Origin: a virus
Virus genome (UHGV): UHGV-0084588
DNA length: 64,000 bases
Direction: 5' to 3' (one strand)
Program-made: the position numbers and the translations under genes
Shown: piece by piece, positions 25,305 through 47,307 of the stretch
How positions within the stretch are numbered: the stretch's first letter is position 1
Layout of the letters: every line of letters begins with the position of its first letter
Notes under the pieces: model-generated
Told to the model about the DNA's origin: nothing
What the model saw: the letters and a program-made list of their open reading frames with translations, nothing else
The model's database searches: none

Positions 25305-25350
25305 CTCAGATATATATTACTTAAGTGAGAGTTACAATTAACTCTTTACA
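25305..25350 (+). promoter_or_regulatory. conserved promoter-like element with downstream inverted repeat
   Basis: CTCAGATATATATTACttaaGTGAGAGTT...AACTCT, 45-75 nt upstream of the HTH gene. Confidence 0.45.
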
Positions 25351-25379
25351 CTGAGTTGTTAACCTAAAGGAGTATTACC

Positions 25380-25739
25380 ATGGCTTACAATCACAATTCC
25401 ATCGTTCTGACAAAACGTAAATTCGGTCTTCACTTGTCTTACGTAATTCGTCATTTGACCACGAAAGATATTACTCAGCGTGAGCTTGCCCAGCTTGCGA
25501 AAGTTTCACAACCCGTTATCTCATCTATTAAGAACGATCACTCAGAACGTTTAAGCTTACCGATTATGATGAAAGTTGCTGATGCGATTCGTTTGAAGTA
25601 TCAGATTAGTTTTAATTCCGTTAAGGGTCGTTGCTCAGTAACTGTCCACGTAGAGTCCGCATTGGACTACGTTGCAAACACCTCCATTAAACGCACCACG
25701 AAGAATGTGCGTTTTATCACTAACACCGCAGCACACTAA
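25380..25739 (+). CDS. XRE-family helix-turn-helix DNA-binding protein
   Basis: ITQRELAQLAKVSQPVISSIKN matches the Cro/C1-type HTH pattern; a promoter-like element lies directly upstream. Confidence 0.5.
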   Translation: MAYNHNSIVLTKRKFGLHLSYVIRHLTTKDITQRELAQLAKVSQPVISSIKNDHSERLSLPIMMKVADAIRLKYQISFNSVKGRCSVTVHVESALDYVANTSIKRTTKNVRFITNTAAH

Positions 25740-25760
25740 TCAACCTGAAGGAGTATTATC

Positions 25761-26432
25761 ATGCCACCGAAAATTGGTAAAACCGTAATTGAAGAAACTG
25801 TAAAGAACGAGACTAAAGCCAACGAAGTTCAACATGCTGCGAAGGTTGAACTTTTACCCTGCGTTAATGAAATACTCGGGGTGAAATTCTTAACTTTTAG
25901 CCCGTATACTGACCTGGTTTTCGATTTTTATCAAGACCAGCCTTTCAACCTATTCACACTTGTCTGCACTTATAATGGCGATGTTCTGGCAGTTGCTCCT
26001 GGTCTTAATAGAGACAAGTTACTTACAGGTACGGTTATTACTGAAATTCTTCTGCGGTTAATGCATAAGTTTGAAGGACCTGAACTTGACAAAATTGCTG
26101 TTAAGTTAGCTGACTTACTAATCAATGCTGTCACCTGGTTGAGTTTTAACCCTTCTATCTATTTCCATTTCAATACAAATATTCTTCACGCCGTAACAGA
26201 CGATGGTAAAAAGTATCGCATCTTAATTAAGGGTGGGGTGCAACAACCTTTGTTCTCTAGACAAAACTGCCATATTAAGTTTTCGCCTGACTTGGTAGAA
26301 GTTTACGGCCAGCGAGTAGCGGCTGGCCACTACGATACCCATCTCAGATTTTTCAATTACCTGTATGAAAAATTAGGGAAAGCTGGCTTGACACCCAATC
26401 TTGCTTTCACAAGTTCTGCCCCTTTTGCGTGA
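25761..26432 (+). CDS. hypothetical protein (223 aa)
   Basis: ORF with SD gaaggag; terminator downstream. Confidence 0.55.
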   Translation: MPPKIGKTVIEETVKNETKANEVQHAAKVELLPCVNEILGVKFLTFSPYTDLVFDFYQDQPFNLFTLVCTYNGDVLAVAPGLNRDKLLTGTVITEILLRLMHKFEGPELDKIAVKLADLLINAVTWLSFNPSIYFHFNTNILHAVTDDGKKYRILIKGGVQQPLFSRQNCHIKFSPDLVEVYGQRVAAGHYDTHLRFFNYLYEKLGKAGLTPNLAFTSSAPFA

Positions 26433-26444
26433 TGTTTAATAATT

Positions 26445-26478
26445 GGGGAACTTCGGTTCCCCTTTCTTTTTTGTTTTT
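26445..26478 (+). terminator. rho-independent terminator
   Basis: GGGGAAC-ttcg-GTTCCCC followed by tttcttttttgttttt. Confidence 0.65.
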
Positions 26479-26526
26479 ACAGCTTTAGCGTATTGTTTTG
26501 AGACGACCTTTTAAGGAGTAATTAAC

Positions 26527-27525
26527 ATGGCTTTTAGGAAGACTATAGAACGTACCGCCACGGATTTAACAGTAGGTCGGTTGGCACGTAGAGATATTCG
26601 CAACCCTCAACTTCAGGCTTGTTTATCGGGTCCTAACGGTGCGGTGATTCGTGAGGCGTTGTGCAATAGTGAACTGAATACGTTCTCTTTACAAAAAGGA
26701 AAAACAATTCAAGGGTTTATCATCACAAAACACATTTACGGCGACCCAACGTTACACTGCTTGTATATGCATGAGATTGTACCGGGTTGTTTGAACAAAC
26801 TGAACCTACTACTGGTACTCGACTATACCGGTTTTACGTACCTTAACCGAATTGCCAGTGGTGTAGAAGAAATCGCTGAGCTTAATGACCTGGGATTTAG
26901 ACACGCCCACTCTACGTACCGTTTAGGCACACGTAAGTTACTGGATGTCGCACTACCAACGAACGTGAAGAACATCTCTGGCGATTTTTATAAAGAGTTA
27001 ACTGCCACACAACGCGAACAGCTTATGTTGCTTTTGGGTACGAGCGTCGTTGAAAACATCAACGCTGACCCTGTGGGCCGCACACGACAAATCATGCCAC
27101 AAGTCGAAACGTTGGTGGAATTAGTACGTCACGTCAACCACCACACCTACGTTTGGATGGACGGCAACGATGTTGTGGGCGTGGTGCAAGTTAAATTGCG
27201 TAATCTTAACGAGTGTGAATTAAAAGCCATTGCGGTGAGTGAAACACACCGGGGGCGTGGTATCGGACGGACTTTGTTATACCGTGCTCTGCAGATTGCA
27301 TCGACAACAGCGGCACCATTGGAGATAGGGTGTTTCAATAACAACCCTGCATTTAGACACCTGGTCGTCGAATTATTTAAATTTCGGCCCTACGATTACG
27401 AATTTGTTTTAGTGCGCGACGATGACGTCGTCAGTTGGGAGCGTCGGAAAAATCGTGTCGAGTTGGTGTTAGGCGACGAAGTGTCATCGTTACAAGGCGG
27501 ATATAATGCGGAAACCAATTATTAA
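26527..27525 (+). CDS. protein with C-terminal GNAT acetyltransferase domain (332 aa)
   Basis: C-terminal AIAVSETHRGRGIGRTLLYRALQIA matches the GNAT acetyl-CoA binding motif; N-terminal half unassigned. Confidence 0.55.
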   Translation: MAFRKTIERTATDLTVGRLARRDIRNPQLQACLSGPNGAVIREALCNSELNTFSLQKGKTIQGFIITKHIYGDPTLHCLYMHEIVPGCLNKLNLLLVLDYTGFTYLNRIASGVEEIAELNDLGFRHAHSTYRLGTRKLLDVALPTNVKNISGDFYKELTATQREQLMLLLGTSVVENINADPVGRTRQIMPQVETLVELVRHVNHHTYVWMDGNDVVGVVQVKLRNLNECELKAIAVSETHRGRGIGRTLLYRALQIASTTAAPLEIGCFNNNPAFRHLVVELFKFRPYDYEFVLVRDDDVVSWERRKNRVELVLGDEVSSLQGGYNAETNY

Positions 27526-28321
27526 GTGGATGGGTGGGAAAACACGTGTTTTAGGGGAATTACAAAAGGTCTTACCTAAACGTACAACCTTTGTAGAACC
27601 GTTTGTGGGTGCAGGGTCTGTTTTCCTAAATACGAACTACAGCCGGTATATTTTATCGGATTCTAACCCTGATTTGATACGCTTACTTTGCGTTGCGCGT
27701 GAACAGCCTGAAGAACTGATCGCTGCGTCGCAGCCGTTGTTCTTAGACGGTAATACCACTGTAAAGTATATGGAGCGTCGTGAGCTGTTTAATAGCGGTA
27801 AAACAATGTCAGAAGTTGAACGGGCAGCGATGTTTTTATACTTAATGCGTCACGGTTATAACGGGATGTGTCGTTATAACGGTAGCGGTGGGTTCAATGT
27901 TCCGTTTGGACGTTACCCGAATGGGGTTTATTATCCGTTAGAAGAAATTCGGGATTGGGCTAAACGTTGCGCAGAAGTCGACTATCTGGAGATTGTTTGT
28001 GAGGACTTTCGTTCCGTATTAGCACGGACGCCTGAGGATGCTGTGATTTATGCTGATCCTCCGTATATTCCGTTATCGGATACCGCGAAACATGCGCAAT
28101 ACCACCGTAAAGAATTCTCACAAACGGATCATCGAGAATTAGCCAAGTTACTACAGCAGCAGGTGGAACGTGGCAACAGTGTCGTGTTGTCAAATGCAGA
28201 CACCCTGCTCACCCGAGAAATTTATTACGGTTTTGAGTGGCGCAGTATTGAGGTCGGTCGCTATATGGGTGCGTCTGGCGCTGCTCGGAAAACGGTGACT
28301 GAATTACTGGGAGTGCTCTAA
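27506..28321 (+). CDS. dam: DNA adenine methyltransferase (Dam-type, GATC N6-adenine MTase)
   Basis: Near collinear with E. coli Dam as I recall it: KWMGGK, VEPFVGAGSVFLNT..SRYIL, FLYLMRHGYNGMCRYN, catalytic DPPY, TREIY. Confidence 0.95.
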   Translation: MRKPIIKWMGGKTRVLGELQKVLPKRTTFVEPFVGAGSVFLNTNYSRYILSDSNPDLIRLLCVAREQPEELIAASQPLFLDGNTTVKYMERRELFNSGKTMSEVERAAMFLYLMRHGYNGMCRYNGSGGFNVPFGRYPNGVYYPLEEIRDWAKRCAEVDYLEIVCEDFRSVLARTPEDAVIYADPPYIPLSDTAKHAQYHRKEFSQTDHRELAKLLQQQVERGNSVVLSNADTLLTREIYYGFEWRSIEVGRYMGASGAARKTVTELLGVL

Positions 28322-29094
28322 TGCGCATAGTGGATATTCACGATTATCGTAATGACCATTTAGCAATTGGTGTCGACGGGAAAATGGTTTCACTAACCCG
28401 TGTACGGAAAGGGTTACTGGAAAAGGACGTCATTCGCGAGTCTGAAGATCCGACCTTTATCATTCTTTCGAACACGAATCAGCTACAAGGAATCTTCTCC
28501 GGTCGTGTCGATGGTAAGTTTTTCTACATGTCGGCAATCGTTGTGTTTGCGAAGAAGAAAATTAATTTCGCACAACTCAAACGTTTGTTAAAAGTGGAGA
28601 TGTTTGATGTCACATACCCTGCCAACGACCTAAAACGTCGTGACCAGTTAATGGTGTATTTGGGTATGCAGCCGACGTCTATCGACTATGACCTGACGTT
28701 TACTGAAGAACCTGAAGTTCGCACCGATTTACCTGATGTAGATGATATTGAATCTCTAACGTTAGAAGAAACGTTTACGATCCCTAAGGTGGTTAATGTC
28801 AGTTTAGATACATACTGTCTGGGATTGTTAGCTATTGGGGCTGCTGAAGGGCTGTGCTGTCGTAAAGACGGTAAAGTTGAAGGTATCTTAGTCTATTCGA
28901 AAATCAACGAAAAGACGTTTGCAACCGAAGGTTTCTTTTATAACGACTGTACTTACGGGATTGCGCTCTTGACCACATACTACCGTATTGCGTATTTAAA
29001 GGGTGCAACCGTGCGTCTTACTTTTCCATACTCAGCACCTCCAGCAATGTCTGGTGTTGAGGTAGAAGCATTAACTGGCCATTTTATCTTTTAA
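28321..29094 (+). CDS. hypothetical protein (257 aa)
   Basis: ORF start overlaps the Dam stop (TAATG). Confidence 0.55.
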   Translation: MRIVDIHDYRNDHLAIGVDGKMVSLTRVRKGLLEKDVIRESEDPTFIILSNTNQLQGIFSGRVDGKFFYMSAIVVFAKKKINFAQLKRLLKVEMFDVTYPANDLKRRDQLMVYLGMQPTSIDYDLTFTEEPEVRTDLPDVDDIESLTLEETFTIPKVVNVSLDTYCLGLLAIGAAEGLCCRKDGKVEGILVYSKINEKTFATEGFFYNDCTYGIALLTTYYRIAYLKGATVRLTFPYSAPPAMSGVEVEALTGHFIF

Positions 29095-29103
29095 GGACAT
29101 TGA

Positions 29104-29331
29104 ATGGAAATCAAGCGTATTGTAACCAAAGACAAAAAGATTACTTATGTCGCAGGTGATAACGAATTCTCGGCGGTTATTAATGACGAGAACGTGCTGA
29201 TTATCGGTTATCCGGGTAAAGTTATTACCCGCAGTCATCAGCGCGTGATTGACAAGCTTATCGCCAAAGCAAAAGCGCGCGACGGTGTTGGTTCAGTACA
29301 AACCCATACCGGGTTAACGTTGGCTCTCTAG
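29104..29331 (+). CDS. hypothetical small protein (75 aa)
   Basis: Short ORF in operon context. Confidence 0.4.
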   Translation: MEIKRIVTKDKKITYVAGDNEFSAVINDENVLIIGYPGKVITRSHQRVIDKLIAKAKARDGVGSVQTHTGLTLAL

Positions 29332-29369
29332 CCAGCAGGTAATATGACCTCTTAACTGGAGACTTAGAG

Positions 29370-29876
29370 ATGAAAGAGACTCTGGATTTTAATCAGCTGG
29401 AGCAGCACGATTTTGATCTCGGTGTTCGCGACTTAGAAACTGACTACGAAACACGTTGTAAAGAATTCTTTAATCGCTACGGGCAATTGATTACCGGGGC
29501 ATCTGAAGACACCGAATTCTCGTTAGACGATTTCGAAAAGATTCTGTCTTGCTTTATCACCGACAGCTTAGCGAAACAGGCATTGCTGGTAGAACAGAAC
29601 CTGCAAATGGTGGAGCCTACAGATGCTCACGCTGTGCTAAAAGAATCCATTATTCCGAACGACGAAATTATGGATGCGGTAGCAGGTATTCGTGGTACGT
29701 TCGACACAGCCGTAGAAGACTATGCCGAACAGCTTCGTGAGTCTGGGCTAACGTTGTGTGCGCCTGCGGGCGAACAGCTACCTTCTGAAGAAGAAACGGA
29801 AGAAGCACGTAATCGCTTAGCGCGTTATGTGATTACTTCTGTGTTAGTAGACGATCGCGAAGAAAACGTACTGTAA
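29370..29876 (+). CDS. highly acidic protein (168 aa)
   Basis: Asp/Glu-rich throughout; terminator downstream. Confidence 0.5.
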   Translation: MKETLDFNQLEQHDFDLGVRDLETDYETRCKEFFNRYGQLITGASEDTEFSLDDFEKILSCFITDSLAKQALLVEQNLQMVEPTDAHAVLKESIIPNDEIMDAVAGIRGTFDTAVEDYAEQLRESGLTLCAPAGEQLPSEEETEEARNRLARYVITSVLVDDREENVL

Positions 29877-29881
29877 ACCTT

Positions 29882-29918
29882 CCCTCTCTCCGTTTGGAGA
29901 GAGGGAGTATTTATTTTT
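29882..29918 (+). terminator. rho-independent terminator (hairpin copy 1)
   Basis: CCCTCTCTCC-gttt-GGAGAGAGGG followed by agtatttattttt; same hairpin as 30929-30952. Confidence 0.65.
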
Positions 29919-29974
29919 ACGCTTTCGCGTCTAATTATGCACACGTAAACAAAATTAATTGAGGAACAGCTTAA

Positions 29975-30292: not shown

Positions 30293-30578
30293 TACCGACG
30301 AAACGAATTTACAGCGCTTGCAACGGGCACTAACTGCACCGCTAGGTGGCGAGATTCACGAACGTTGGGTAATTGCGAGGGTGGTAGAAATTGACTATTC
30401 TCAGGATCAGTTGCTGTTAAATAACTGCTCGTCGAACGTGCCTTTCACGTTACCGCGTGCTGTATTCCGCCTTACCCCCAACGTTGATGAAATACTGACT
30501 ATTGACAGGAAACTTCTATCGATAGAACTTCAGCATTTCCCGCTACCTGGTAAGTCGGTTAATATTGCGCTGTGTTAA
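30270..30578 (+). CDS. hypothetical protein (about 102 aa)
   Basis: Track ORF 30159-30578 trimmed to the in-frame ATG at 30270, which overlaps the upstream stop by 23 nt. Confidence 0.4.
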   Translation: MSSQNHTNTDETNLQRLQRALTAPLGGEIHERWVIARVVEIDYSQDQLLLNNCSSNVPFTLPRAVFRLTPNVDEILTIDRKLLSIELQHFPLPGKSVNIALC

Positions 30579-30597
30579 TGACAGTCTAAAAAACTTA

Positions 30598-30632
30598 AGA
30601 TATATTTCATCTATGTGAGAATTCTCACTTAA
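30598..30632 (+). promoter_or_regulatory. promoter-like AT-rich motif plus palindrome (variant copy)
   Basis: GATATATTTCATctatGTGAGAattCTCACTTAAC upstream of 30652. Confidence 0.35.
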
Positions 30633-30651
30633 CTAAATGGAGTAATCTAAA

Positions 30652-30921
30652 ATGGCTAAGATTTACATTGTTGAGAAACGTGCGGGTAATGTTCTTTCTT
30701 ATTACGAAGAAGGTAAGCCTGAGAAAATCAAAACACTCAAACTCGACGGGTACGATGTGAAGAGTTTACGTAAGGGTGTGAAGATTACCTTTAAAGGTCT
30801 GGTTCGCGCAGGTAACCTACACATTGTTAAGACTGACGGTACGATGGCTGCGTTAGCACCTGTCAGTGCTGCGAAAACGACAGCAGGTCGTGGCTGCTAC
30901 GGTAGCAGTCGTAAGATTTAA
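30652..30921 (+). CDS. hypothetical basic small protein (89 aa)
   Basis: ORF preceded by a promoter-like element and SD aatggag; terminator downstream. Confidence 0.45.
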   Translation: MAKIYIVEKRAGNVLSYYEEGKPEKIKTLKLDGYDVKSLRKGVKITFKGLVRAGNLHIVKTDGTMAALAPVSAAKTTAGRGCYGSSRKI

Positions 30922-30928
30922 GCAGTGC

Positions 30929-30968
30929 CCCTCTCTCCGTTTGGAGAGAGGGTACTTTTATTTTTCTT
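30929..30968 (+). terminator. rho-independent terminator (hairpin copy 2)
   Basis: CCCTCTCTCC-gttt-GGAGAGAGGG followed by tacttttatttttcttc. Confidence 0.65.
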
Positions 30969-30979
30969 CGAGGTGTGTG

Positions 30980-36008: not shown

Positions 36009-36212
36009 GCTTGACGCTTTTACTGGTAATGGAGGCCAAAGTAAACTTTTATCAAGACTTAGTAAACCCAGATCATGAGAACGCGGAATTGGACATCACT
36101 TTCACGTTAGAAGTTGATGGATTAAAACCAGTATAATAATCCGCTTATAAAAATGTTGGGGAGGTGCTTTACCTCCCCAGATCTTTTAGCTCCAGATAGA
36201 GAATTAAATATC

Positions 36213-39200
36213 ATGGCTAAAGCGGTAAAGAAAATACGTTTACACGATTTGCGTCCATACACCGGGGATATCGGTGAAGGCGTTTTACTTTTTTCGAAAG
36301 ACGAAAAAGATTATAAGTTACCCGTCCGCGAAATCGTTGCGGATATTGACACCGTCAGAAACGCGGTTGCTGATGCACAAACAGCTGCAGCCAAATCGCA
36401 GCAGTCTGCAACAGAAGCTACGCAAGCAAAAAATTTAGCGGAAACCGCGAAGCAACAAACTGACACGTTAGCTTCCACAGTCAGTGAGCAAGCGGGAACC
36501 GTTGCCACTAAAACTGCTGAAGTTAACAAAAAACACGCTGAAGTTTTAGCAGCGAAAACTGCCGTAGATACTGTTTCACAATCAGTAAATGAGAAGGCTC
36601 AAGCTGTCGCCACATCCGAACAATCTGTGACGGCTACGGCGGCTGATGTAACTAAGAAAGCAGAAACGGTTACGCAACAGGCCGGACAAGTTCAACAGAC
36701 GGCTACCAGCGTTGAAAATACCGCAGCTTCAGTCGAGGCCAGTAAAGGTGCAGTGGAGAAAATCGCTGCACAGGTCGCGAAAGATAAAGAAAGCTCAGAA
36801 GGGGCAGCTACGCGTTCGGAGTCAGCTGCCCTACGTGCGGAGAAAATCGCTGCCCAAGGATTAGTTGACGCTACTACAACCGGTAAAGGTATTGTTAAAC
36901 TTAACGATACCCTGACAAGCGATTCCGTGACTGAGGCTGCTACACCGTCCACGGTTAAACAGCTGAACGACGATTTACAGTTAAAAGCCAATAAACATTC
37001 GCCGAATTTTACGGGTAACCCGACATCCCCAAAACCGCCGAAGGACTCGAATGACACGAGTATCTCCACAACGTCCTGGGTGCGTGACGCGATTGCGGAA
37101 TTGGTTGGTTCTTCACCCGAGACGCTAAATACCTTAGCGGAATTAGCTGAGGCGTTAGGTAATGACCCTAACTTCGCAACAACGATCACTGAGGAACTTG
37201 CGCAGAAACAACCTCTCAGCCCGTTACTCACCGCTATTGCCGCAGTCACCACAGCGGCAAACAAACTCATGTATTTCACCGGCAGTAATAAAGTCGGATT
37301 AACAGATTTTACAGAAACGGCCAGATCCTTGTTAGCGAAAGGGTCAACTGCGGATATCATTAACTTCCTGGGTTTGAAACCCACCGTTGATAAAGCAAAC
37401 GGCGCATTACAGAAAAACTCTAACGGTGCTGATATCCCAAATAAAGAAACTTTTGCTCGCAACATCGGCCTATCTCCTGATACCTATCTGCGTTTCCGTG
37501 GCGAAATGCCTGTAGATGCTGATATTAACACATTTGCTCCAGATGCTAATTACACAGGAACATGGTCCAAGTCGACATCAACCAATGCGTCGATGGCAAA
37601 ACACTTCCCAGAAGACGGTGCAGTCGGTTATCTGGAAGTGTATAAAGCGGGCAACTACAGTGGAGCGCAACGTTTTACCTGCCGTAATGGTAACGTGTAC
37701 AACCGTATGTTGTCAGGTGCGTGGAACGGAACTAATGGCCCGTGGTCACCGTGGAGAATGGTAACTACCGGTGTACGTCCGTTATCTACATCGATCGATC
37801 TGAACTCCTTAGGCGGCGCTGAGCACATGGGTAACTGGCGTAACTCGTCCAGTTCGTTAGCGGTGTTCGACAGACATTATCCTGAAGAGGGCGGTAATGC
37901 GCAAGGCGTATTAGAAGTCATGGAAGGCGGTCTTTATGGACGGTTGCAACGATACACCACACGACATGGTACGATGTATGTCCGTGGTTTGACTGCGACT
38001 TGGGATTCTTCTAATCCGCAGTGGGAAGATTGGATTCAGGTTGGGTATCAGGTAGACGGTGCCTACTATAAGGGTAGCTTTAACGACTTAACTAAACCGG
38101 GCCGCTTTAGTGTTACCGGTGAGGCTACAGACAGTCCGTTAACAGACTCTGCTGGCGCAACCTTGCTAGGTGTTTGCGAAGTTACCTTACGCTTAGACGG
38201 TTCAGGCGTTGAACAAAATTATACCACATACGGTACAGGCGCAACTTCGAAAGGTCGCAAGTTCCAACGAATTCGTACAGGAAACGCCTGGAGCGAATGG
38301 CGAGAGATTTTCACATCCTATTCACTCCCGTTGACTTTAGGGATCGGTGGGGTTGCTGCTAAGGTCGATCCGTTAGACTGGCAAACATTCGACTTCGTTC
38401 CTGGCCAGATGATAAGTACACCGTTGAATACCATGAAAAATATTCCTGCGGGAATGGATTGGGGTGTTATCGACGGTAACTTGGTCACTATTCTTGTAGG
38501 GGCGTCGGAGGACACCGGTACTGGCCGGAGTATGTTGGTCTGGCGTGGTACAGTGTCTACTGCTAACTATCGCTTCTTTGCTGTTCGCGTCGCTGGTGAA
38601 AAGGGTAAACGTACTATTACTAGCCGCCAGATGCCCGTATTGAATGCAGCGCATACGTGGGCAGAAAAACAGACCTTTGCAAAAGGGTTATCGGGCGAAT
38701 TGACAGGTAATGCGTCAACGGCAACAAAACTGAAAACAGCCCGTTTAATCGGCGGTGTAAGTTTCGACGGTAGCGGCGACATTAGCCTCCCTGGTGTGAA
38801 CCAACAGGGTAATCAAAACACCTCTGGGAACGCGGGAACCGCAACCAAATTACAAACGGCTCGAAACATCAACGGTGTGAAATTTGATGGGTCTAGAGAC
38901 ATCAATATCAACACGTTGGTAGGACGTGGACGTGTTACTGCACTGTCTGGTTCAAACAAAGGTACACCCGGTATTCAGATGTACGAAGTTTACAATAACG
39001 GTTATCCAACCGCTTATGGTAACTTACTGCATTTGGGTGGCGCTACTGCGCTAGGTGAAGGCGAGCTGTTAATCGGATGGCCGGGGACGAGCGGTGCGCA
39101 CGCGCCTGTTTATATTCGTAGTCGACGTGATACGGCTGATGCACCGTGGTCAGATTGGGCACAAGTTTACACTGCCCGTGACAGCATTCCTGGCGTAAAT

Positions 39201-40655
39201 GCCACCGGTAATCAAGATACTACCGGCAACGCCGCTACCGCGACGAAACTGAAAACCGCTCGCAGGATCGGAGGCGTTACCTTTGACGGTACAGGTGATA
39301 TCAATTTACCGGGCGTTAACCAGCAAGGCAACCAGAATACGACAGGTAATGCAGCGACCGCTACTAAGTTACAAACCGCACGTAAGATCGGCGGTGTGCT
39401 TTTCGATGGGACAAAAGACGTTAATCTTCCTGGCGTAAACCAAACCGGTAACCAATCGACTACGGGGAATGCGGCGACAGCGACTAAGCTCCAGACTGCG
39501 CGAAATATAGGTGGTGTAGCTTTTGATGGTACTAAAGACATCAGTTTACCTGGAGTAAACCAAACAGGTAATCAGGCGACTACCGGAAACGCAGCCACGG
39601 CAACAAAGTTGCAAACCGCAAGAACCATTAACGGTATCGCATTTGACGGCACTAGAAATATATCGTTAGGACCTGCCGATATAGGTTGTCCGGCATCGCC
39701 TAGTGGTTGGTTAGAAACTGGCAAAGATGGCGGCGCAATAACTACAGCACAGCTAGTGACGTTATTGAAAAATAACGGCGCATTTACCACAAGATCGTGG
39801 GTTGCTCGCTGTGCATGGGCTTATGCCGCTAGTGCGTCCATACCACACAGCGAGACGGGTTGTGGTGTTATTCCGTTAGCTGGGGCCGTTATAGAAGTGA
39901 TTAGTAACGGTAATAGCACAAACAACTACACGATCCGTATAACGACTGCCACAACGGCGAGCGTCGGTGGCGCACTCACTAATGCGGAGTTTATCTACGT
40001 ATTTAACGGCGATACATACTCACCAGGCTGGCGTCGTGCTTACAATACGAGAAACAAGCCAACTGCTGCAGAAGTGGGTGCACTACCTTCGGGGGGCGGT
40101 ACTATAGGCGGCGATTTAACCGTTAACGGTAAATTGGCCACTAAATACCCTGATTTTCGAATCGCTTACGGTACCTACGGTTTTATTTTACGTAACGACG
40201 GTGCCAATACCTATTTCTTAGTAACCGACGCCGGACAAGCCGCAACGGGTTCCTGGAACGGATTACGCCCGTTGTCTTTTAATAATTCTAACGGCCAAGT
40301 AAACTTTGGACATAACGTTACTGGCAACGGTAACGGTTCGTTTAACGACGTACAGATTCGTTCTGACCGTCGTAACAAACGTAATCTGGTGAAGCTGGAT
40401 AAAGCTTTGGATCGGTTAGAGTTACTAACCGGTTATTTGTACGAAATTCAGCATCCGGATGACGGCTGGCAGACTTCTGTAGGTCTAATTGCTCAGGACG
40501 CATTAGAAGCGTTACCTGAACTTGTGTCTGAGGATGATGATGCCATTTCAGGCGAAAAACGTTTACGTCTAAACTACAATGGCGTTATTGCGCTGTTAGT
40601 AGAGGGTATGAAAGCGTTGCGTCAAGAGGTTAACGAAATTAAAGGAAGATCCTAA
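36213..40655 (+). CDS. tail fibre protein with Ala-rich coiled coil, 40-aa tandem repeats and C-terminal intramolecular chaperone (S74-like) domain
   Basis: 1480-aa ORF; repeats GNAATATKLQTAR.IGGV.FDGT.DI.LPGVNQ.GNQ.TT; C-terminal SDRRNKRN...GLIAQD...YNGVIALLVEGMKALRQE resembles the self-cleaving chaperone domain of tail fibres and tailspikes. Start moved from 36153 to 36213 by paralogy with 42678. Confidence 0.85.
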   Translation: MAKAVKKIRLHDLRPYTGDIGEGVLLFSKDEKDYKLPVREIVADIDTVRNAVADAQTAAAKSQQSATEATQAKNLAETAKQQTDTLASTVSEQAGTVATKTAEVNKKHAEVLAAKTAVDTVSQSVNEKAQAVATSEQSVTATAADVTKKAETVTQQAGQVQQTATSVENTAASVEASKGAVEKIAAQVAKDKESSEGAATRSESAALRAEKIAAQGLVDATTTGKGIVKLNDTLTSDSVTEAATPSTVKQLNDDLQLKANKHSPNFTGNPTSPKPPKDSNDTSISTTSWVRDAIAELVGSSPETLNTLAELAEALGNDPNFATTITEELAQKQPLSPLLTAIAAVTTAANKLMYFTGSNKVGLTDFTETARSLLAKGSTADIINFLGLKPTVDKANGALQKNSNGADIPNKETFARNIGLSPDTYLRFRGEMPVDADINTFAPDANYTGTWSKSTSTNASMAKHFPEDGAVGYLEVYKAGNYSGAQRFTCRNGNVYNRMLSGAWNGTNGPWSPWRMVTTGVRPLSTSIDLNSLGGAEHMGNWRNSSSSLAVFDRHYPEEGGNAQGVLEVMEGGLYGRLQRYTTRHGTMYVRGLTATWDSSNPQWEDWIQVGYQVDGAYYKGSFNDLTKPGRFSVTGEATDSPLTDSAGATLLGVCEVTLRLDGSGVEQNYTTYGTGATSKGRKFQRIRTGNAWSEWREIFTSYSLPLTLGIGGVAAKVDPLDWQTFDFVPGQMISTPLNTMKNIPAGMDWGVIDGNLVTILVGASEDTGTGRSMLVWRGTVSTANYRFFAVRVAGEKGKRTITSRQMPVLNAAHTWAEKQTFAKGLSGELTGNASTATKLKTARLIGGVSFDGSGDISLPGVNQQGNQNTSGNAGTATKLQTARNINGVKFDGSRDININTLVGRGRVTALSGSNKGTPGIQMYEVYNNGYPTAYGNLLHLGGATALGEGELLIGWPGTSGAHAPVYIRSRRDTADAPWSDWAQVYTARDSIPGVNATGNQDTTGNAATATKLKTARRIGGVTFDGTGDINLPGVNQQGNQNTTGNAATATKLQTARKIGGVLFDGTKDVNLPGVNQTGNQSTTGNAATATKLQTARNIGGVAFDGTKDISLPGVNQTGNQATTGNAATATKLQTARTINGIAFDGTRNISLGPADIGCPASPSGWLETGKDGGAITTAQLVTLLKNNGAFTTRSWVARCAWAYAASASIPHSETGCGVIPLAGAVIEVISNGNSTNNYTIRITTATTASVGGALTNAEFIYVFNGDTYSPGWRRAYNTRNKPTAAEVGALPSGGGTIGGDLTVNGKLATKYPDFRIAYGTYGFILRNDGANTYFLVTDAGQAATGSWNGLRPLSFNNSNGQVNFGHNVTGNGNGSFNDVQIRSDRRNKRNLVKLDKALDRLELLTGYLYEIQHPDDGWQTSVGLIAQDALEALPELVSEDDDAISGEKRLRLNYNGVIALLVEGMKALRQEVNEIKGRS
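38706..38912 (+). repeat. two tandem copies of a 120-bp (40-aa) fibre repeat inside the tail fibre gene
   Basis: Encodes GNASTATKLKTARLIGGVSFDGSGDISLPGVNQQGNQNTS followed by a diverged copy. Confidence 0.7.
39225..39680 (+). repeat. four tandem copies of the 120-bp (40-aa) fibre repeat inside the tail fibre gene
   Basis: Copies begin at 39225, 39345, 39465 and 39585; each encodes GNAATATKLQTAR.IGGV.FDGT.DI.LPGVNQ.GNQ.TT with synonymous codon drift. Confidence 0.8.
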
Positions 40656-42162: not shown

Positions 42163-42678
42163 ATGGGGCAATTCGTGCCGGATTTGTCGTTAACTTCACT
42201 TAACATGGTTATTTCACTGGTTAACCATGACCTCCAGCTCGACTTGCAAGAGAACGAGGTTGAAGTCAGCGACGTAAAGACCAGTAACGAAATGGATCGT
42301 GACACCACTGCTGTTGTAAAGATAAAACGTCCGGACAACAGAACGTTGCAGATATATTACAACCGTTTAACCGCAGAGCGGTGGTTAAACCAGCAACCTA
42401 TCCTAGTAAAGGTTTCCGGTAATGGCTTTACCGCACACGATCTAATCGACGGAATTAACGCGGCTTGTGGTTGTAATTTACAACCCGACGATCTTACCGA
42501 CGAATCATTTACCGTAGGGAAAGACGCTGTAACGTTACAGGTTTCACCCAACTCGTTAGGTTATAAAGGCCAATTCTCCGTTCTGGTTTTCGGTAACGAT
42601 GAAGAAGCTGCTGTAGTAAAAGACAACGATTTAATCGTTACCGCAGATAACCGTGTCTTAACATTCGGAGGCCGCTAA
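42163..42678 (+). CDS. fibre-module accessory protein, paralog of 35448-36008
   Basis: Shares PDLSL..., IYYNRLTA and CGCNLQPDDL motifs with 35448-36008; SD gggag upstream. Confidence 0.55.
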   Translation: MGQFVPDLSLTSLNMVISLVNHDLQLDLQENEVEVSDVKTSNEMDRDTTAVVKIKRPDNRTLQIYYNRLTAERWLNQQPILVKVSGNGFTAHDLIDGINAACGCNLQPDDLTDESFTVGKDAVTLQVSPNSLGYKGQFSVLVFGNDEEAAVVKDNDLIVTADNRVLTFGGR

Positions 42679-43298
42679 TGGCTGAACTGGTAGGAAAGGT
42701 GCGCATTCATGAACTGGAGACACTTTCAGAAGACATCACGGGTGTAGTAGTCTTAGCGTCTAAGGAACAAACTGAATACCAACTCCCGATTGAGAAATTA
42801 GGGGGTACCGAGGTTACAGTGAGTCCGTCAGCGAATAACATCCTTAAGTCTAACAACGATGGGTTGTTTGTTGACGGCACTCATCCGATTATACCAAAAA
42901 TGGATGCAAAAACCTTATCGGGAAATATGGTGGTAGAAAAAACGTTGACAGGTGGTGCGGTAATCTGCAAAACAACAGTTGACGTTAATAATAGACTGGG
43001 GGTTTCGCAATTATCTGGAGTGTCAATTTATAGCCAGTGTCTGTTGGAAAATAAATTGGTTTATCTGGGAGAAGACGGCAGTATTATTGATGCGTACTTC
43101 TACATTAGTAATACAAAGACCACAGCCAGTACAATAACCCACACCATTCGTGTTGTTTTAGCGAAGATACCCTCTAAAGTTATCGATATCACCGATTTGT
43201 CTGAAACCGAAGTACAATACGAGAATAGTAATTTACCTGTTAAGATCGTTATTAAACATCTTGCAGGGACAACACTTTCCCAGAACGGAATGAAATAA
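42678..43298 (+). CDS. putative second receptor-binding or fibre protein sharing the N-terminal domain of the 1480-aa fibre (206 aa)
   Basis: N-terminus MAELVGKVRIHELETLSEDITGVVVLASKEQTEYQLPIEKL aligns with MAKAVKKIRLHDLRPYTGDIGEGVLLFSKDEKDYKLPVREI of 36213; terminator downstream. Confidence 0.5.
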   Translation: MAELVGKVRIHELETLSEDITGVVVLASKEQTEYQLPIEKLGGTEVTVSPSANNILKSNNDGLFVDGTHPIIPKMDAKTLSGNMVVEKTLTGGAVICKTTVDVNNRLGVSQLSGVSIYSQCLLENKLVYLGEDGSIIDAYFYISNTKTTASTITHTIRVVLAKIPSKVIDITDLSETEVQYENSNLPVKIVIKHLAGTTLSQNGMK

Positions 43299-43304
43299 AT
43301 TTTA

Positions 43305-43352
43305 GGTAGTAGGGGCTTAAGCCCCTACTACCTTTTCTTTTTTTTATTTTTT
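43305..43352 (+). terminator. rho-independent terminator after the fibre module
   Basis: GGTAGTAGGGGC-ttaa-GCCCCTACTACC followed by ttttcttttttttatttttt. Confidence 0.7.
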
Positions 43353-43398
43353 CTCAGATATATATTACCTAGGGGAGAGTGAAATTTACATTCACTCC
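43353..43398 (+). promoter_or_regulatory. conserved promoter-like element with downstream inverted repeat
   Basis: CTCAGATATATATTACCTAGGgGAGAGTGAAatttacaTTCACTCC upstream of 43426. Confidence 0.45.
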
Positions 43399-43425
43399 AT
43401 TAGTTATAGCCGAAAGGAGGATTAG

Positions 43426-44277
43426 ATGTATCACCCGTATTATCTCCCGCGTATTCTAGCAAATAGGGACCCTGGTTATTACTACGAACAAACAAAGGGG
43501 TCTTTTAATCGACTTTACATTCGTGAATTTAATACCGACGAAATGACCGATGACCAGTATCTGGAGTATCTAAAAGACCTTTACAGTTTTTCAAAATCGA
43601 ATAAAGATGGCTTTGGACGTTCCGCAGTCATTAGAGATGGTGAATATCGCCATTTGGCTAAGCCTGTTACGTACCCTATTGTTACGCGAGCTTATACGTC
43701 GGATAGGCAATATATTGCTGAACTAAAATTTCCTTTACGGATAGACGGGCCTCAAATTAGCGCTATAGAAGTAGAAATTCAACCAATTGCTGAAAACTAT
43801 ATTGAGGACTACTTCAAGAAAGCTAAAGACGTACTCGACGAGGGTTTAAGTTACTCTGAAGAAGGCACGATTTGTCTTCTCTCGTTACTCACGAAGACTT
43901 ACGTCACGGCAAATTTCCGTGTCTCTGATTCCAGTAACTACAATACACTTACTCCCTCTAAGACAAAATCGGTTTATTGGGACGATCGGTTAGTCGACAG
44001 ACAACGCTGGCTTACTATCTTAGATAGAGTAAAATTCGAACCCCCTAAACACACCGAAGACAATTTTATTTTATTGCACAACTTCGAACCAATTTATATT
44101 CCAACGCATTTTGATCAAGCCTTACGTCATCGGTTGAAGTATGTGTTGGAATTACGGTACGGAAAGATAAACGGACTAACCTGTTCCGGTGAATTGGGTG
44201 AAGAAGAACGCGAGAAGATAAAAATCGTGTTTGATAAGTTGGTTGAAGATTACATTAAGAAGGAAGGGCAATTATGA
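43426..44277 (+). CDS. hypothetical protein (283 aa)
   Basis: ORF preceded by a promoter-like element and SD aaggagg. Confidence 0.5.
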   Translation: MYHPYYLPRILANRDPGYYYEQTKGSFNRLYIREFNTDEMTDDQYLEYLKDLYSFSKSNKDGFGRSAVIRDGEYRHLAKPVTYPIVTRAYTSDRQYIAELKFPLRIDGPQISAIEVEIQPIAENYIEDYFKKAKDVLDEGLSYSEEGTICLLSLLTKTYVTANFRVSDSSNYNTLTPSKTKSVYWDDRLVDRQRWLTILDRVKFEPPKHTEDNFILLHNFEPIYIPTHFDQALRHRLKYVLELRYGKINGLTCSGELGEEEREKIKIVFDKLVEDYIKKEGQL

Positions 44278-44717
44278 AACCAAATACTACTAACGGCATT
44301 ATGCTACTTTGTGATTCTGAAACGTTAGCAAATCGCATTCGTGGTTTGATGCAAGTACGTTGGCGGCAGAAAGTTCTCGTGGATTACGATGCACCGTTTG
44401 TTCACATTACCTGGCTGCCAGAAGCTAGTGATTTCAAAGAACGTATAACCACGAGAAGAATTAAAGAATGGTTATCGGCAATCATTAATAAACAGATTAC
44501 CGTTATCAATTTCCAACTTTTCGGTACCGCTGAAGAACATGAAATCTTGAAGCAGTGTTTAAGAGACTTGGGTCTTTCCTCTTCTGTTCGTGGTAGCTGC
44601 TACACGGCTTACTTTATCGGTTCACTTGAACTGTTTAAGAATACACTAATGCTTCAACTAAAAGACGACTACAAACTTTTAGATAAAATCGATTTCGAAT
44701 TCCCAGGCATGATTTAA
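44274..44717 (+). CDS. hypothetical protein (147 aa)
   Basis: ORF start overlaps the upstream stop (ATGA). Confidence 0.5.
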   Translation: MKPNTTNGIMLLCDSETLANRIRGLMQVRWRQKVLVDYDAPFVHITWLPEASDFKERITTRRIKEWLSAIINKQITVINFQLFGTAEEHEILKQCLRDLGLSSSVRGSCYTAYFIGSLELFKNTLMLQLKDDYKLLDKIDFEFPGMI

Positions 44718-44763
44718 GGAATCATAGCTTAATCACCCCACCATTTACCTAAAGGAGCATTAA

Positions 44764-45279
44764 ATGTCAGTAAATATTAACATGAATCTTTATACTAAAC
44801 GTGAACGTCAGATTCTGGCGAATCAACCTGGTGTTACGACTATCGACGGTAAACCTATTGACCGTTTAAAAGTTATCGTTGCGCGAAATTGTCATGAACA
44901 CGATTGGGACATTACCTACTTCCGTTGTTGTTCGGTCGCAAATGCGCTTACTCAACTCTCTAACTACCACTCAGGACCGCTATTAAAAGACTGGGTTTGG
45001 TTAGTGCCAAGAACACCCACAGCAATTGAGTATCCCGCTGGACTAGTTTATATTCGACCTGTCGCTTATCCAGAGCGTCTGAAAGAATATCTTGAAGTTA
45101 TCTGGAACCGTCCTCGTAAAGAGCTGGTGACGATTATTAATTTACTGCAGCAGATCGAAATCCCCGGCGTTTCGAATTTGAAACTCACGTCTCGCGATAT
45201 TAACCAGGCTTACTGGGAACTGGAGTGGACAGAACCGAAATTCGAAAACACTAACCGTATTTTCTTGCACCGGGGGTAA
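44764..45279 (+). CDS. hypothetical protein (171 aa)
   Basis: ORF with conserved leader acctaaaggagcatta upstream. Confidence 0.5.
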   Translation: MSVNINMNLYTKRERQILANQPGVTTIDGKPIDRLKVIVARNCHEHDWDITYFRCCSVANALTQLSNYHSGPLLKDWVWLVPRTPTAIEYPAGLVYIRPVAYPERLKEYLEVIWNRPRKELVTIINLLQQIEIPGVSNLKLTSRDINQAYWELEWTEPKFENTNRIFLHRG

Positions 45280-45281
45280 AA

Positions 45282-45563
45282 ATGTTAGATTGGTTGTTGG
45301 GTTTAATTAACACACGTCAACAGGAGCTTTATAAAGAAAACACGCGATTACGGCAGGAGCTTAGTAACAATCGTCAGACCAAACGACAATTAATTCGGAT
45401 GGTAAAACAACAGGCGCGTTGTATACGTGATATCGATTATCAGTATCACCGTCTGAATACCTTAGACCCAACAACAAAAGCCCTCGGTGGGACAATCGGA
45501 CACGCACGTAAAGTCAGTCACGATGCGTTAGTTCGATTAGATACAATAGAAGAGAAACTGTGA
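45282..45563 (+). CDS. small coiled-coil protein (93 aa)
   Basis: ORF with basic heptad-like sequence; hairpin 45578-45604 downstream. Confidence 0.45.
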   Translation: MLDWLLGLINTRQQELYKENTRLRQELSNNRQTKRQLIRMVKQQARCIRDIDYQYHRLNTLDPTTKALGGTIGHARKVSHDALVRLDTIEEKL

Positions 45564-45605
45564 TATAACCCCTCTCAGGAAATCCTGAGAGGGGGGAGTA
45601 ACGAT

Positions 45606-45980
45606 ATGTCATTACTGTTATACAAATTCAGATGTTGGCTAGACACTTCGTTTAAAACCTGGGCTTGCGGCAAGAATGTCACAACGGTAGTTAAATCGGG
45701 TGACTGGTATACGGAAATTATTACATTAGCAAATGGAGGATTGCAAAACGTACAAGTTCGTAACGTAGTTGTTAGAATAGGACGTGAAGGAGGTGCAATC
45801 TTCAACTCTGAATACTATCAAGTTTCTGCCCTGGAGTTAAAAAACGGTCCGATTTTATTTATCGGTACAGCACAACACCTTTACGATACAGTTGTTAAGT
45901 TTGCTGAAAGGGTAAAACGTTTAAATGATTCGCTTAGTAAGTTTATTAAAGAAACTGAACGAACTACGGTGGAGATTTAA
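45606..45980 (+). CDS. hypothetical protein, tandem paralog A (124 aa)
   Basis: Shares W.CGK.V..VVK.GDWYTE..T..NG.L.NV..R.V.V..GR.GG..F.SE with the next ORF. Confidence 0.5.
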   Translation: MSLLLYKFRCWLDTSFKTWACGKNVTTVVKSGDWYTEIITLANGGLQNVQVRNVVVRIGREGGAIFNSEYYQVSALELKNGPILFIGTAQHLYDTVVKFAERVKRLNDSLSKFIKETERTTVEI

Positions 45981-45983
45981 AAG

Positions 45984-46370
45984 ATGCGTTTATTTTACTT
46001 AAAAAGGCGTTTGTCATTAAAAGCCCAACTGTTTGTTAACGAGAAAGTTAAAAACTGGCTGTGCGGTAAAAGGGTACAATATGTCGTTAAAGAAGGAGAC
46101 TGGTATACGGAGGTTGTGACTTCCCCTAACGGTGAACTTATAAACGTTACTATTCGTGACGTTATGGTTAAGGTTGGTAGGGGTGGCGGTCGGTTGTTTG
46201 AATCGGAAACTATAAGAGTCGCTGCTAAACAATTGAAAGATGGTCGAGTTTTATTCAATGTTACCGCCCAGAAATACTACGACAATTTATTCGAGTGTCA
46301 ACGAGCAATGGACAGAATGACCCGTGAGATGCGAAGAATGCACATTACGGAGATCACAATAGGAGTTTAA
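45984..46370 (+). CDS. hypothetical protein, tandem paralog B (128 aa)
   Basis: See 45606-45980. Confidence 0.5.
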   Translation: MRLFYLKRRLSLKAQLFVNEKVKNWLCGKRVQYVVKEGDWYTEVVTSPNGELINVTIRDVMVKVGRGGGRLFESETIRVAAKQLKDGRVLFNVTAQKYYDNLFECQRAMDRMTREMRRMHITEITIGV

Positions 46371-46681
46371 TGATGGAAAATAAAATCGCGAACACATCGG
46401 CACCTGAGAACATTGTCAATTATATTCTCAGAGGCGGGTTATTAGAAGACAACAAAGAAACGTGCGATAAACTCGTTTCTCAACTACTGCCTATTCGTTC
46501 AGAATACTGCGAAATCGTTATCTTAGGTTCCGAGTATTGTGTACGCTCTTACTGCCGACGTTTCGAAGCCCTACGTGTACCTCGTACGTTAGGTGGTGTG
46601 ATCTTACTGATCTCATCTTTTCAAGACGCCCATGTGCGTGTGGCGACCTGGATTGCCAGAGGAGGTAACAGTGGTTTTTAA
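46370..46681 (+). CDS. hypothetical protein (103 aa)
   Basis: ORF start overlaps the upstream stop. Confidence 0.45.
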   Translation: MMENKIANTSAPENIVNYILRGGLLEDNKETCDKLVSQLLPIRSEYCEIVILGSEYCVRSYCRRFEALRVPRTLGGVILLISSFQDAHVRVATWIARGGNSGF

Positions 46682-46979
46682 ATTGCTAGGTTTCGGAAAA
46701 TGCAAAGAGTGCGCAAAGCACGAAGAATTTATCAAGCTATTAGAAGAAACAGTTGAAACACAACAAGAACTCATTTCTGAATACCGTGCGAAAACTGGTT
46801 CAGTAGAATATCTGACCATCCTTGTTTGTGCTATTGCTGAGTTGGGTTGTGAGGGGGAATTGCCTAAAGAGGAGATATTAAAACTATTAAAAGAAAAAAC
46901 GTCGTTTTACCGTAAAGATATTGAAGCGTGTAAACGTGAGGTTAAAAGAGCTAACTGGGAGGTTATCAATGAAGCGTGA
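46671..46979 (+). CDS. hypothetical protein (about 102 aa, GTG start)
   Basis: Track ORF 46632-46979 trimmed to the GTG at 46671, which has SD ggaggt 5 nt upstream. Confidence 0.4.
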   Translation: MVFKLLGFGKCKECAKHEEFIKLLEETVETQQELISEYRAKTGSVEYLTILVCAIAELGCEGELPKEEILKLLKEKTSFYRKDIEACKREVKRANWEVINEA

Positions 46980-47250
46980 AACTATTGTATTTTGTCAAAA
47001 CGGTGATGTAAAACAATACCGGGGCAAGAAGTTAATTCGTACGTTAGATTATCGCGAAGCAAAACGTTTCGTTGAAGAGTGTGCGTGGTTAATGCATTAC
47101 GAAGGGAACTATCGCGCCATCTTAGAAGCACCGCGTTTAGAACGTGCAGTTGCGCAGATGGCAATAGGTAATCCTAAGAACTGTTACCTGGCCCGTAAGC
47201 CCAAATACCTACAGCGTGTCTCGCTAGGCAGTTTTATTGCGGGTTTTTAA
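46969..47250 (+). CDS. hypothetical protein (about 93 aa)
   Basis: Track ORF 46921-47250 trimmed to the ATG at 46969 with SD gggagg upstream. Confidence 0.4.
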   Translation: MKRETIVFCQNGDVKQYRGKKLIRTLDYREAKRFVEECAWLMHYEGNYRAILEAPRLERAVAQMAIGNPKNCYLARKPKYLQRVSLGSFIAGF

Positions 47251-47260
47251 TAAAAATATT

Positions 47261-47307
47261 TTCAGATATATATTACCTAGGTGAGAGTTCAGTTACTCTC
47301 ACTTAAC
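47261..47307 (+). promoter_or_regulatory. conserved promoter-like element with perfect palindrome
   Basis: TTCAGATATATATTACCTAGGTGAGAGTtcagttACTCTCACTTAACG upstream of 47332. Confidence 0.45.

Follow-up and report, generated by a model that had tools for sequence, protein, structure and literature searches.

Putative virion RNA polymerase early promoters with a hairpin at the predicted transcript start in an uncultured SPN3US-like jumbo phage

The locus and its repeated element

The DNA analyzed here, referred to as the window, is a stretch of 64,000 nucleotides (nt) from the viral genome UHGV-0084588. Five copies of an AT-rich element precede genes on its + strand, and these are read here as putative early promoters of a jumbo phage. 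The original prediction had described a recurring promoter-like motif upstream of at least five genes, had likened it to the promoters used by the virion RNA polymerase (RNAP) of phiKZ-like phages and had suggested that the phage carries its own RNAP. The open reading frame (ORF) at 2672-4966 contains the PhiKZ_MCP major capsid domain (PF25620, E=1.4e-208), and the capsid protein shares 81% identity with its counterpart in Erwinia phage Asesino and about 80% with those of phiEaH2 and SPN3US. On the + strand, the ORF at 6171-7946 encodes a homologue of PHIKZ123, a chain of the solved non-virion RNAP (nvRNAP) of phiKZ (7ogp_E, E=2e-17), which also matches phrog_2943 'polymerase' (E=7e-170) and is 77% identical to Asesino gp94, annotated as 'putative RNA polymerase beta subunit'. 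The gene order of the window is collinear with Asesino 68.5-137 kb. The exact nvRNAP protein recurs in the metagenome collection, in 198 blocks, and on metagenomic contigs of 219-225 kb. Because of the capsid and nvRNAP homology, the collinearity with Asesino and the metagenomic occurrence of the nvRNAP protein, the window is assigned by sequence to an SPN3US-like jumbo phage of about 220-225 kb that is common although uncultured.

The 20-mer TCAGATATATATTACYTAGG is found on the + strand exactly at 43354-43373 and 47262-47281 and with one mismatch at 25306-25325, and 100 dinucleotide-preserving shuffles gave 0.00 matches to it within three mismatches. From the motif start to the ATG the distance is 74 nt for the gene at 25380, 72 nt for that at 43426 and 70 nt for that at 47332, in line with the 45-75 nt given originally. 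The 8-mer TATATTAC is exact at 25313, 43361 and 47269. Alone it is not significant (5 occurrences in the window vs 2.5 expected), so that the signal resides in the extended motif. A weight matrix of 46 columns was derived from related jumbo-phage contigs; its 42 non-identical sites were collected by an exact-match scan of IMG/VR with TCAGATATATATTAC and then filtered for the jumbo-type downstream RTGA. Five sites in the window scored above the shuffle maximum of 11.6 (best of 20 shuffles), with matrix starts at 47244 (60.2), 25288 (46.7), 43336 (40.6), 30578 (21.2) and 5017 (16.2); the remaining matches reached at most 7.9, and nothing stood out on the minus strand. The motif search that had been suggested as a check, performed on the window with a matrix from related phages, upheld four of the five named sites, those at 25306, 43354 and 47262 as strong copies and that at 30596 as a degenerate one, and failed to recover the copy before 24637. 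It also added a site at 5035, with its core at 5035-5049, beyond the part of the window covered by the original prediction, where GATAGATATTAT is exact at 5038-5049.

All five accepted cores are non-coding, in a window of which 8.0% is non-coding (chance about 3e-6), and all lie on the + strand, 35-94 nt 5' of a + strand start codon. The window consensus is TTTCAGATATATATTACYTAGGTGAGA. In an alignment of nine window and Asesino sites (alignment A1) the invariant positions are GATAnATnTnA-(7N)-G, with an element length of 20-45 nt. The predicted transcription start (+1) was assigned by the 6N rule as the last G of G(T/G)G, which falls at 5056, 25327, 30617, 43375 and 47283; this position is a G in 5/5 window sites and in all nine sites of alignment A1. 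The candidate 5' of 24637 (24566-24601, + strand; TTGTAAATTATTAC and then a hairpin, CTCTCATTGTGAGAG) was rejected as lying outside the motif family. Its 24566-24585 segment has no matrix match and lacks the invariant GATA and AT; three of the nine invariant core positions of alignment A1 are broken, and with T instead of G at the predicted +1 this becomes four of ten. The orthologous Asesino spacer, before gp117, has no motif.

Two subclasses can be distinguished. Class A, TATAT(A/T)TTAC-YTAGGTGAGAG, comprises the window sites at 25306, 43354 and 47262, with that at 30596 intermediate. Class B, GATAGATATTATCTTGGTGA, comprises the window site at 5035 and Asesino sites before gp39, gp47, gp92, gp93, gp142 and gp243 (Asesino genome positions 16356, 16448, 24575, 74000, 74919, 111675 and 195753). 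The best match to the family consensus is the putative Class-A promoter at 47262-47283 (TCAGATATATATTAC CTAGGT, G(+1) at 47283), which precedes the ORFs at 47332-49831. The Class-A site at 25306-25327 (TCAGATATATATTAC TTAAGT, G(+1) at 25327) precedes a gene (25380-25739) for a putative regulator with a helix-turn-helix (HTH) domain, and that at 43354-43375 (TCAGATATATATTAC CTAGGG, G(+1) at 43375) precedes the ORFs at 43426-44277 and 44274-44717. The degenerate site at 30596-30617 (TAAGATATATTTCATCTATGT, G(+1) at 30617) stands before an 89-codon ORF (30652-30921). The Class-B site at 5035-5056 (TTGGATAGATATTATTAAAGG, G(+1) at 5056) stands before a 16-codon mini-ORF, the ORF at 5150-6160 and the nvRNAP subunit gene, which belongs to the unit predicted to begin at 5056. 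Directly before three of the five sites lies a + strand terminator-like hairpin with a T-run: at 4982-5005 (10 pairs, 6 G-C), between the capsid gene and the 5035 site; at 25266-25291 (11 pairs, tail TATTTTATTT), between the thymidylate kinase gene and the 25306 site; and, as a strong hairpin of 13 pairs (8 G-C), at 43304-43333, directly 5' of the 43354 site.

The mini-ORF lies within the leader of 94 nt that separates ORF 5150 from the predicted start at 5056. It begins at ATG 5087 (MEKIQFKLKICIIIKI), its stop codon ends at 5137, and it has a good Shine-Dalgarno sequence, AAAGGAG, at 5075-5081; ORF 5150 has no obvious Shine-Dalgarno sequence of its own, and the mini-ORF is absent before Asesino gp93. 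Around the 30596 site, the terminator-like hairpins at 29880-29907 and 30929-30952 have a common core, CCCTCTCTCCGTTTGGAGAGAGGG, and look like a repeated terminator module flanking the small unit that starts from this site.

Conservation and likeness to known early promoters

The complete Asesino genome was assembled from six pieces, scanned with the same 46-column matrix and checked against the annotation tables. Sixteen sites scored above 10 (shuffle maximum 7.9), all on the + strand, and 15 of them lie in annotated intergenic spacers, the exception being located inside a 74-codon hypothetical ORF. Each is found 29-103 nt before the ATG of a + strand gene (16/16 co-oriented). Sites precede gp39-gp40 and gp93-gp94, of which gp40 and gp94, annotated as RNAP beta-like, are taken to be nvRNAP subunits; gp39-gp40 resembles phiKZ gp54-gp55 in layout. 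No site was found in the Asesino genome before gp262/gp263, which are taken to be the virion RNAP (vRNAP) genes, or before the capsid gene or the tail genes, and the window scan gave no site on the minus-strand structural cluster.

Orthologous sites precede orthologous genes in the two phages, as seen for ORF 5150 and gp93 (54% identical), the gene at 25380 and gp118 (34%), and the ORF at 30652 and gp127 (46%). The window sites at 43354 and 47262 have positionally equivalent Asesino sites before gp142 and gp152. The proteins of Asesino and the window have diverged to 24-77% identity and the flanking non-coding DNA is unalignable, yet the promoters stay in place, which argues for function. In a megablast search with 43200-47900, other phages (Erwinia and Salmonella jumbo phages) match only over the 40-60 nt of the promoter at 47262.

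Published consensus sequences provide the closest match. The early promoter of phiKZ is TATATTAC, that of 201phi2-1 is TTAWTAVAA_HYWTTTRARR_BTATATTACDWHDGTG, ending in ...TATATTACDWHDGTG, and those of OBP and N1M2 end in ...TTTYARRYAKATATTATYWWADTG and ...TTTCARRYAKATATTATYWAAGTGWA, respectively (PMC7058600 Table 2). For AR9 the early promoter is AAATATATATTAT-(6N)-G(+1), and transcription of phiKZ and phiR1-37 likewise starts 6 nt past the element (PMC5312081). Each RNAP-encoding jumbo phage has an AT-rich motif of about 10 nt centered near -10 before presumed early operons, and wherever tested this motif is an early promoter read by the virion RNAP (PMC7598289). The phiKZ/AR9 consensus drives transcription that is resistant to rifampicin and does not need protein synthesis (PMC7598289, PMC5312081). 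The likeness that had originally been proposed is thus confirmed by the consensus table (PMC7058600) and by PMC7598289, and PMC11512511 is likewise cited for the identity with known early promoters. Judged by sequence, the window element is the same as the published early-promoter element of phiKZ-related jumbo phages, and the consensus sequences of phiKZ, 201phi2-1 and AR9 that it matches were mapped by experiment.

The further suggestion of a phage-encoded RNAP is borne out in the window by the PHIKZ123-homologous nvRNAP subunit; the virion RNAP genes lie outside it. An IMG/VR contig with 90% nucleotide identity to the window over 46.5-54.7 kb encodes an RNAP beta-like protein of 1387 aa (phrog_3148), 82% identical to Asesino gp263. 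By its size and an adjoining second RNAP beta-like gene, this protein is taken to be the counterpart of SPN3US gp241 (159 kDa), a vRNAP subunit that is detected in virions and required for vRNAP incorporation (PMC5694885).

The five sites are thus very probably early promoters read by an injected virion RNAP, in a jumbo phage that is SPN3US-like and related to phiKZ; this reading is supported by homology, position and synteny and not by experiment. The injected five-subunit virion RNAP would bind the AT-rich core near -10, initiate 7 nt past TATTAC/TATTAT, at the conserved G, and would require neither the host sigma-70 nor new protein synthesis. The 5056 unit would supply an early nvRNAP subunit and the 25327 unit an HTH regulator, and the 43375 and 47283 units would supply small ORFs, which are typical host-takeover candidates.

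The hairpin at the predicted transcript start and the surrounding cassette

In Class A the initial transcribed bases (GAGAG...) are the 5' arm of a hairpin of 6-9 bp that leaves 0-1 unpaired nt at the 5' end. In the predicted transcript from 25327 the 5'-terminal hairpin spans 25327-25346 (GAGAGUUA-CAAU-UAACUCUU; centroid fold, -8.0 kcal/mol, z=-2.2). The 5'-proximal hairpin at 43375-43398 has its stem at 43377-43397 (GAGUGAA-AUUUACA-UUCACUC) and an optional G43375-C43398 closing pair, with a leader fold of -10.4 kcal/mol (z=-2.7). At 47283-47300 the hairpin is flush with the predicted +1 (GAGAGU-UCAGUU-ACUCUC; -8.9 kcal/mol, z=-2.1); as a DNA repeat it extends over 47281-47302, and a second analysis gave -12.2 kcal/mol (z=-4.5). 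The 30596 site has a weak leader fold (z=-0.5) and a short palindrome, GTGAGAATTCTCAC, at 30615-30628 on the + strand, which spans the predicted start and offers 5 bp in DNA and only 3 bp from +1 in RNA. The 5035 site is without a 5' hairpin and its leader fold is not stable, and, in these genomes, Class-B promoters lack the hairpin. Mean leader minimum free energy in Asesino is about -3 kcal/mol for Class B vs about -8 for Class A. Class A and Class B may be functionally distinct early subclasses. In Asesino, Class B, without the hairpin, is located before the operons with RNAP beta-like gp40 and gp94 and before other larger genes, and Class A, with the hairpin, mostly before small hypothetical genes.

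Leaders share further sequence. The motif TCACTTAAC(G/T) recurs just past hairpins at 24595-24615 (after the rejected 24566 site), 30623-30635 and 47297-47312, and Asesino and SPN3US-type leaders have another common motif, TAATCGAC...TAAAGGAG.

The repeat could be mainly a mobile or recombinogenic cassette of terminator, promoter and leader, similar to the promoter-early stem-loop (PeSL) elements of T4, its identity being kept by recombination besides polymerase specificity. A unit of about 90 nt, consisting of promoter, hairpin, leader and Shine-Dalgarno sequence, is indeed 81-82% identical at unlinked loci of the same or near-identical genomes, with copies at window 47232-47335 and, in closely related genomes, at L070:9475-9569, L098:1997-2080 and L092:6021-6112. 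Genes without an Asesino homologue stand directly after the 43375 and 47283 promoters, and PeSLs are composite terminator/promoter motifs that mediate indels and gene shuffling in T4-like phages (PMC4122927). On the other hand, a relative of 90% identity is collinear over 46.5-61 kb, so that no shuffling junction was caught, and cassette behavior would complement promoter function and not replace it. We consider this account possible and, on balance, rather doubtful. A contig with 97% identity to window 67-5490 carries one of the cassette copies, about 1.6 kb to the left of where the window begins.

The hairpin itself was followed across 52 related sites. At 40/52 of them a hairpin with a stem of 5 bp or more begins no further than 6 nt from GTGA, vs 27% of 4262 control GTGA positions from the same DNA (Fisher 9e-14). 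Most stems measure 6-8 bp, and loops are most commonly 3-6 nt (range 3-12). In 33 of the 40 hairpin-bearing sites the hairpin starts at offsets 0-3 of GTGA, which corresponds to -2 to +2 relative to the predicted +1. The mean z of the leader folds vs shuffles is -2.1. Since variable loop lengths bar an unbiased alignment, an own-arm vs other-arm test was used in which pairs are not picked by complementarity: a fixed +1..+8 arm found a perfect 8/8 match in its own downstream sequence in 27% of cases vs 3% for different-arm sites (p=0.001). In orthologous promoters either the stem is retained and the loop altered, or both arms are altered jointly, for example GAGGAAU/AUUCCUC before Asesino gp127 and GAGAAUUCUC before window 30652. 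The pattern is plain on inspection of the site sequences.

An inverted repeat from +1 to +25 might instead act in DNA, for instance as an operator for the 25380 HTH protein, or in the transcript as a pause or attenuator. The HTH gene lies directly 3' of one hairpin-bearing promoter, CTTTT follows the stem at many related sites, and premature termination in 5' untranslated regions has been reported for phiKZ (PMC10914365). However, stems and loop lengths (3-12 nt) differ among sites, which is ill-suited to one dimeric DNA-binding protein. Stem pairs across the related sites include 16 G-U vs 5 A-C, and folds of the sense strand exceed those of the antisense strand in stability (-6.5 vs -5.1 kcal/mol, Wilcoxon p=2e-4), which hints at RNA and not a DNA cruciform or operator. 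An attenuator is disfavored by the short AU-rich stems, which would be poor terminators, and a pause or attenuator by the three strong window copies, which have at most three U past the stem. We regard such a role of the hairpin as unlikely.

A more plausible role, although one about which we remain somewhat doubtful, is that the hairpin blocks 5'-end-dependent decay and stabilizes the first phage messages. 5'-terminal base pairing stabilizes mRNA (Emory 1992; Bouvet & Belasco 1992, as cited in PMC3997798), and Bacillus subtilis RppH requires at least two unpaired 5' nt (PMC3997798). A stem with 0-1 unpaired nt is poorly accepted by RppH-type pyrophosphohydrolases and by the RNase E 5' sensor, so that the Class-A hairpin would shield the triphosphate 5' end from RppH and from this sensor. 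Alternatives are a pause or attenuator, an aid in promoter escape, or a mark for early-mRNA handling in the early infection vesicle (PMC13282480). The hairpin had also been considered as a general trait of phiKZ-type promoters, which was dropped as inconsistent on a small sample of seven phiKZ sites: among the phiKZ TATATTAC sites, 2/7 leaders have z below -1.5 and 2/7 stems begin at the first base. No 5' hairpin at jumbo-phage early starts was found in the literature covered, which did not include the promoter-logo papers Lavysh 2016 and Ceyssens 2014; of the features reported here, only the +1 hairpin and the existence of two promoter subclasses were not found described there.

Putting these parts together, we tentatively suggest that the strongest early promoters of SPN3US-like phages form a cassette of about 90 nt, made up of terminator, vRNAP promoter, +1 hairpin and conserved leader, in which a clade-specific hairpin would set the fate of the first messages, through their stability or their handling on exit from the early infection vesicle, and that the cassette would seed and shuffle early genes. 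This combined proposal is held with less confidence than the 5'-end protection.

Candidate polymerases, gene content and comparison with known systems

Several points weigh against the assignment of the sites to an injected virion RNAP and against the hairpin that accompanies it. No transcript mapping, rifampicin or chloramphenicol data were found for any SPN3US-like phage, and in the literature covered no jumbo-phage vRNAP has been characterized in vitro and its mode of promoter reading is not described. The location of the virion RNAP genes outside the window is a further point. The +1 was assigned by analogy and may be 1-2 nt off. The hairpin p-values are inflated because the sites are partly orthologous, the weaker sites at 30596 and 5035 have little or no hairpin, and at several related sites the stem is followed by a short run of U, which is compatible with pausing or attenuation. 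Finally, the core includes TATATT (5/6 of the sigma-70 -10 hexamer) and a weak -35-like hexamer is present at two sites out of five, so that some use by the host RNAP is possible.

This last point leads to the bacterial RNAP as the enzyme acting on the early phage genes, at host sigma-70 promoters formed by a TATATT -10 and an A/T-rich UP-like region. TATATT matches TATAAT at five of six positions, and a consensus scan gave ATGACA-17-TATATT at 30578 (10/12) and TTAATA-16-TATATT at 47247 (9/12). The originally claimed lack of a -35 element accordingly does not extend to these two sites; it stands at 25306, 43354 and 5035, and at 25306 and 43354 there is only a T-run upstream, neither being called in the scan. 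Against host promoters, conservation reaches beyond the -10 hexamer, to TCAGA upstream and AC-YTAGGTGAGA downstream, and sigma-70-like sites are not enriched across the window (26 vs 33, 20 vs 26 and 30 vs 31 expected from shuffles). The rifampicin resistance and independence of protein synthesis of the phiKZ/AR9 consensus also count against this reading, which we judge very improbable.

At least as improbable are promoters of the middle or late class read by the nvRNAP. The phage encodes an nvRNAP, and Class B, which differs from Class A, could be another temporal class. However, known nvRNAP promoters are different, namely the phiKZ late T(-3)ATG(+1), a weak AT-rich middle element at -24 and the AR9 AACA-6N-TA/G (PMC7598289), and no copy is found before structural genes or the genes taken as vRNAP. 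Genes for nvRNAP subunits are themselves preceded by the motif; as their products are needed before any nvRNAP can exist, the nvRNAP is an unlikely reader. A promoter for a T7-like single-subunit RNAP, considered for a resemblance to ...TAGGGGAGA, was dropped because the motif matches the jumbo-phage consensus and no single-subunit RNAP was matched among the ten large window ORFs scanned (all ORFs of at least 591 aa included), and an N4-type DNA-hairpin promoter was likewise dropped, as the hairpin lies 3' of the predicted +1 and has an RNA-type asymmetry.

As putative virion-RNAP promoters, the sites mark where early transcription units would begin in this widespread, uncultured jumbo phage (about 220 kb); on its own this is routine annotation. 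By their place in these units, the small ORFs at 43426-47250 and 47332-49831 stand out as likely host-takeover genes. Most of these ORFs, including those directly after the 43375 and 47283 starts, have no Asesino homologue (exceptions are 44764, 45282 and 46370), and the four that were scanned, 43426, 44274, 47332 and 47871, match no PHROG or Pfam family. Lying directly after the two strongest promoters, these runs may hold clade-specific early genes for host takeover or anti-defence. The element also offers a very specific sequence for early-gene prediction across SPN3US-like phages. The hairpin, if true, would provide a handle on how these phages protect or route their first mRNAs, and a means of telling the two early-promoter subclasses apart.

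Other genes of the window complete the picture. GNAT acetyltransferase and Dam methylase genes at 26527-28321 lie 3' of the HTH unit, and their membership in it is uncertain because a terminator-like hairpin (26445-26462) intervenes. The ORF at 36153-40655, of 1500 codons, encodes not a polymerase but a tail fibre, which combines a T4 gp34-like trimerisation domain with an S74 intramolecular chaperone domain at its C-terminus. A megablast search with it against the phage collection gave no nucleotide match, so that this gene is probably a host-range determinant of the uncultured phage. Within the minus-strand block, 56877-59118 holds a radical SAM gene (56877-58211, PF04055) and an adjoining ORF (58201-59118); the pair has its syntenic counterpart in Asesino gp180-gp181, each of which is annotated as a radical SAM protein, and the PF04055 match comes from the first ORF only. 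At the boundary between + strand and - strand gene blocks an unusual hairpin (55048-55070) contains a run of ten G (CGGGGGGGGGGTAACCTCCCCCG). Rfam (gathering thresholds) and tRNA scans of the window gave no matches.

Among known systems, phage N4 provides a parallel. Its promoter hairpin is a DNA structure upstream of +1 that is recognized by a single-subunit RNAP. The N4 virion-RNAP early promoters share with the window sites an injected polymerase and a promoter-associated hairpin (PMC4496689); unlike in N4, the hairpin here is downstream of +1, has RNA-type G-U pairs and would go with a multisubunit polymerase.

The T4-type PeSLs (PMC4122927, PMC2839356) likewise combine a terminator hairpin with an early promoter, are repeated among small variable early genes, and have novel genes adjoining conserved copies. 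They differ in polymerase, which is sigma-70-dependent in T4, and their sequence is unrelated; the likeness of the cassette to them is an analogy with modest support.

With the 5' stabilizer stem-loops of the ompA and papA leaders, the predicted Class-A leaders have in common a short hairpin, 0-1 unpaired 5' nt and a purine-rich initial transcribed sequence. The T7 phi10 leader, which starts with GGGAGA, is also listed among such 5'-terminal stabilizers. Unlike in ompA and papA, the stems here are AU-rich (-6 to -12 kcal/mol) and their role is predicted, and the hairpin is tied to the putative promoter of a phage multisubunit RNAP and not to a sigma-70 or T7 promoter.

The closest system is that of the phiKZ-related early promoters, with which the window element shares the AT-rich core near -10, a T/A-rich upstream part and a GTG whose last G is the expected start, as well as the intergenic position before early operons that include nvRNAP genes and, probably, a phage-own split multisubunit RNAP. 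Class A is similar to the phiKZ/201phi2-1 form and Class B to the OBP/N1M2 (...TTTCARRYAKATATTATYWAAGTGWA)/AR9 form. Unlike in those phages, both core variants are found here in one genome, and Class A bears a covarying hairpin from +1, which is inconsistent at the seven phiKZ sites. The element itself is of a known kind, of which this phage is a further instance.

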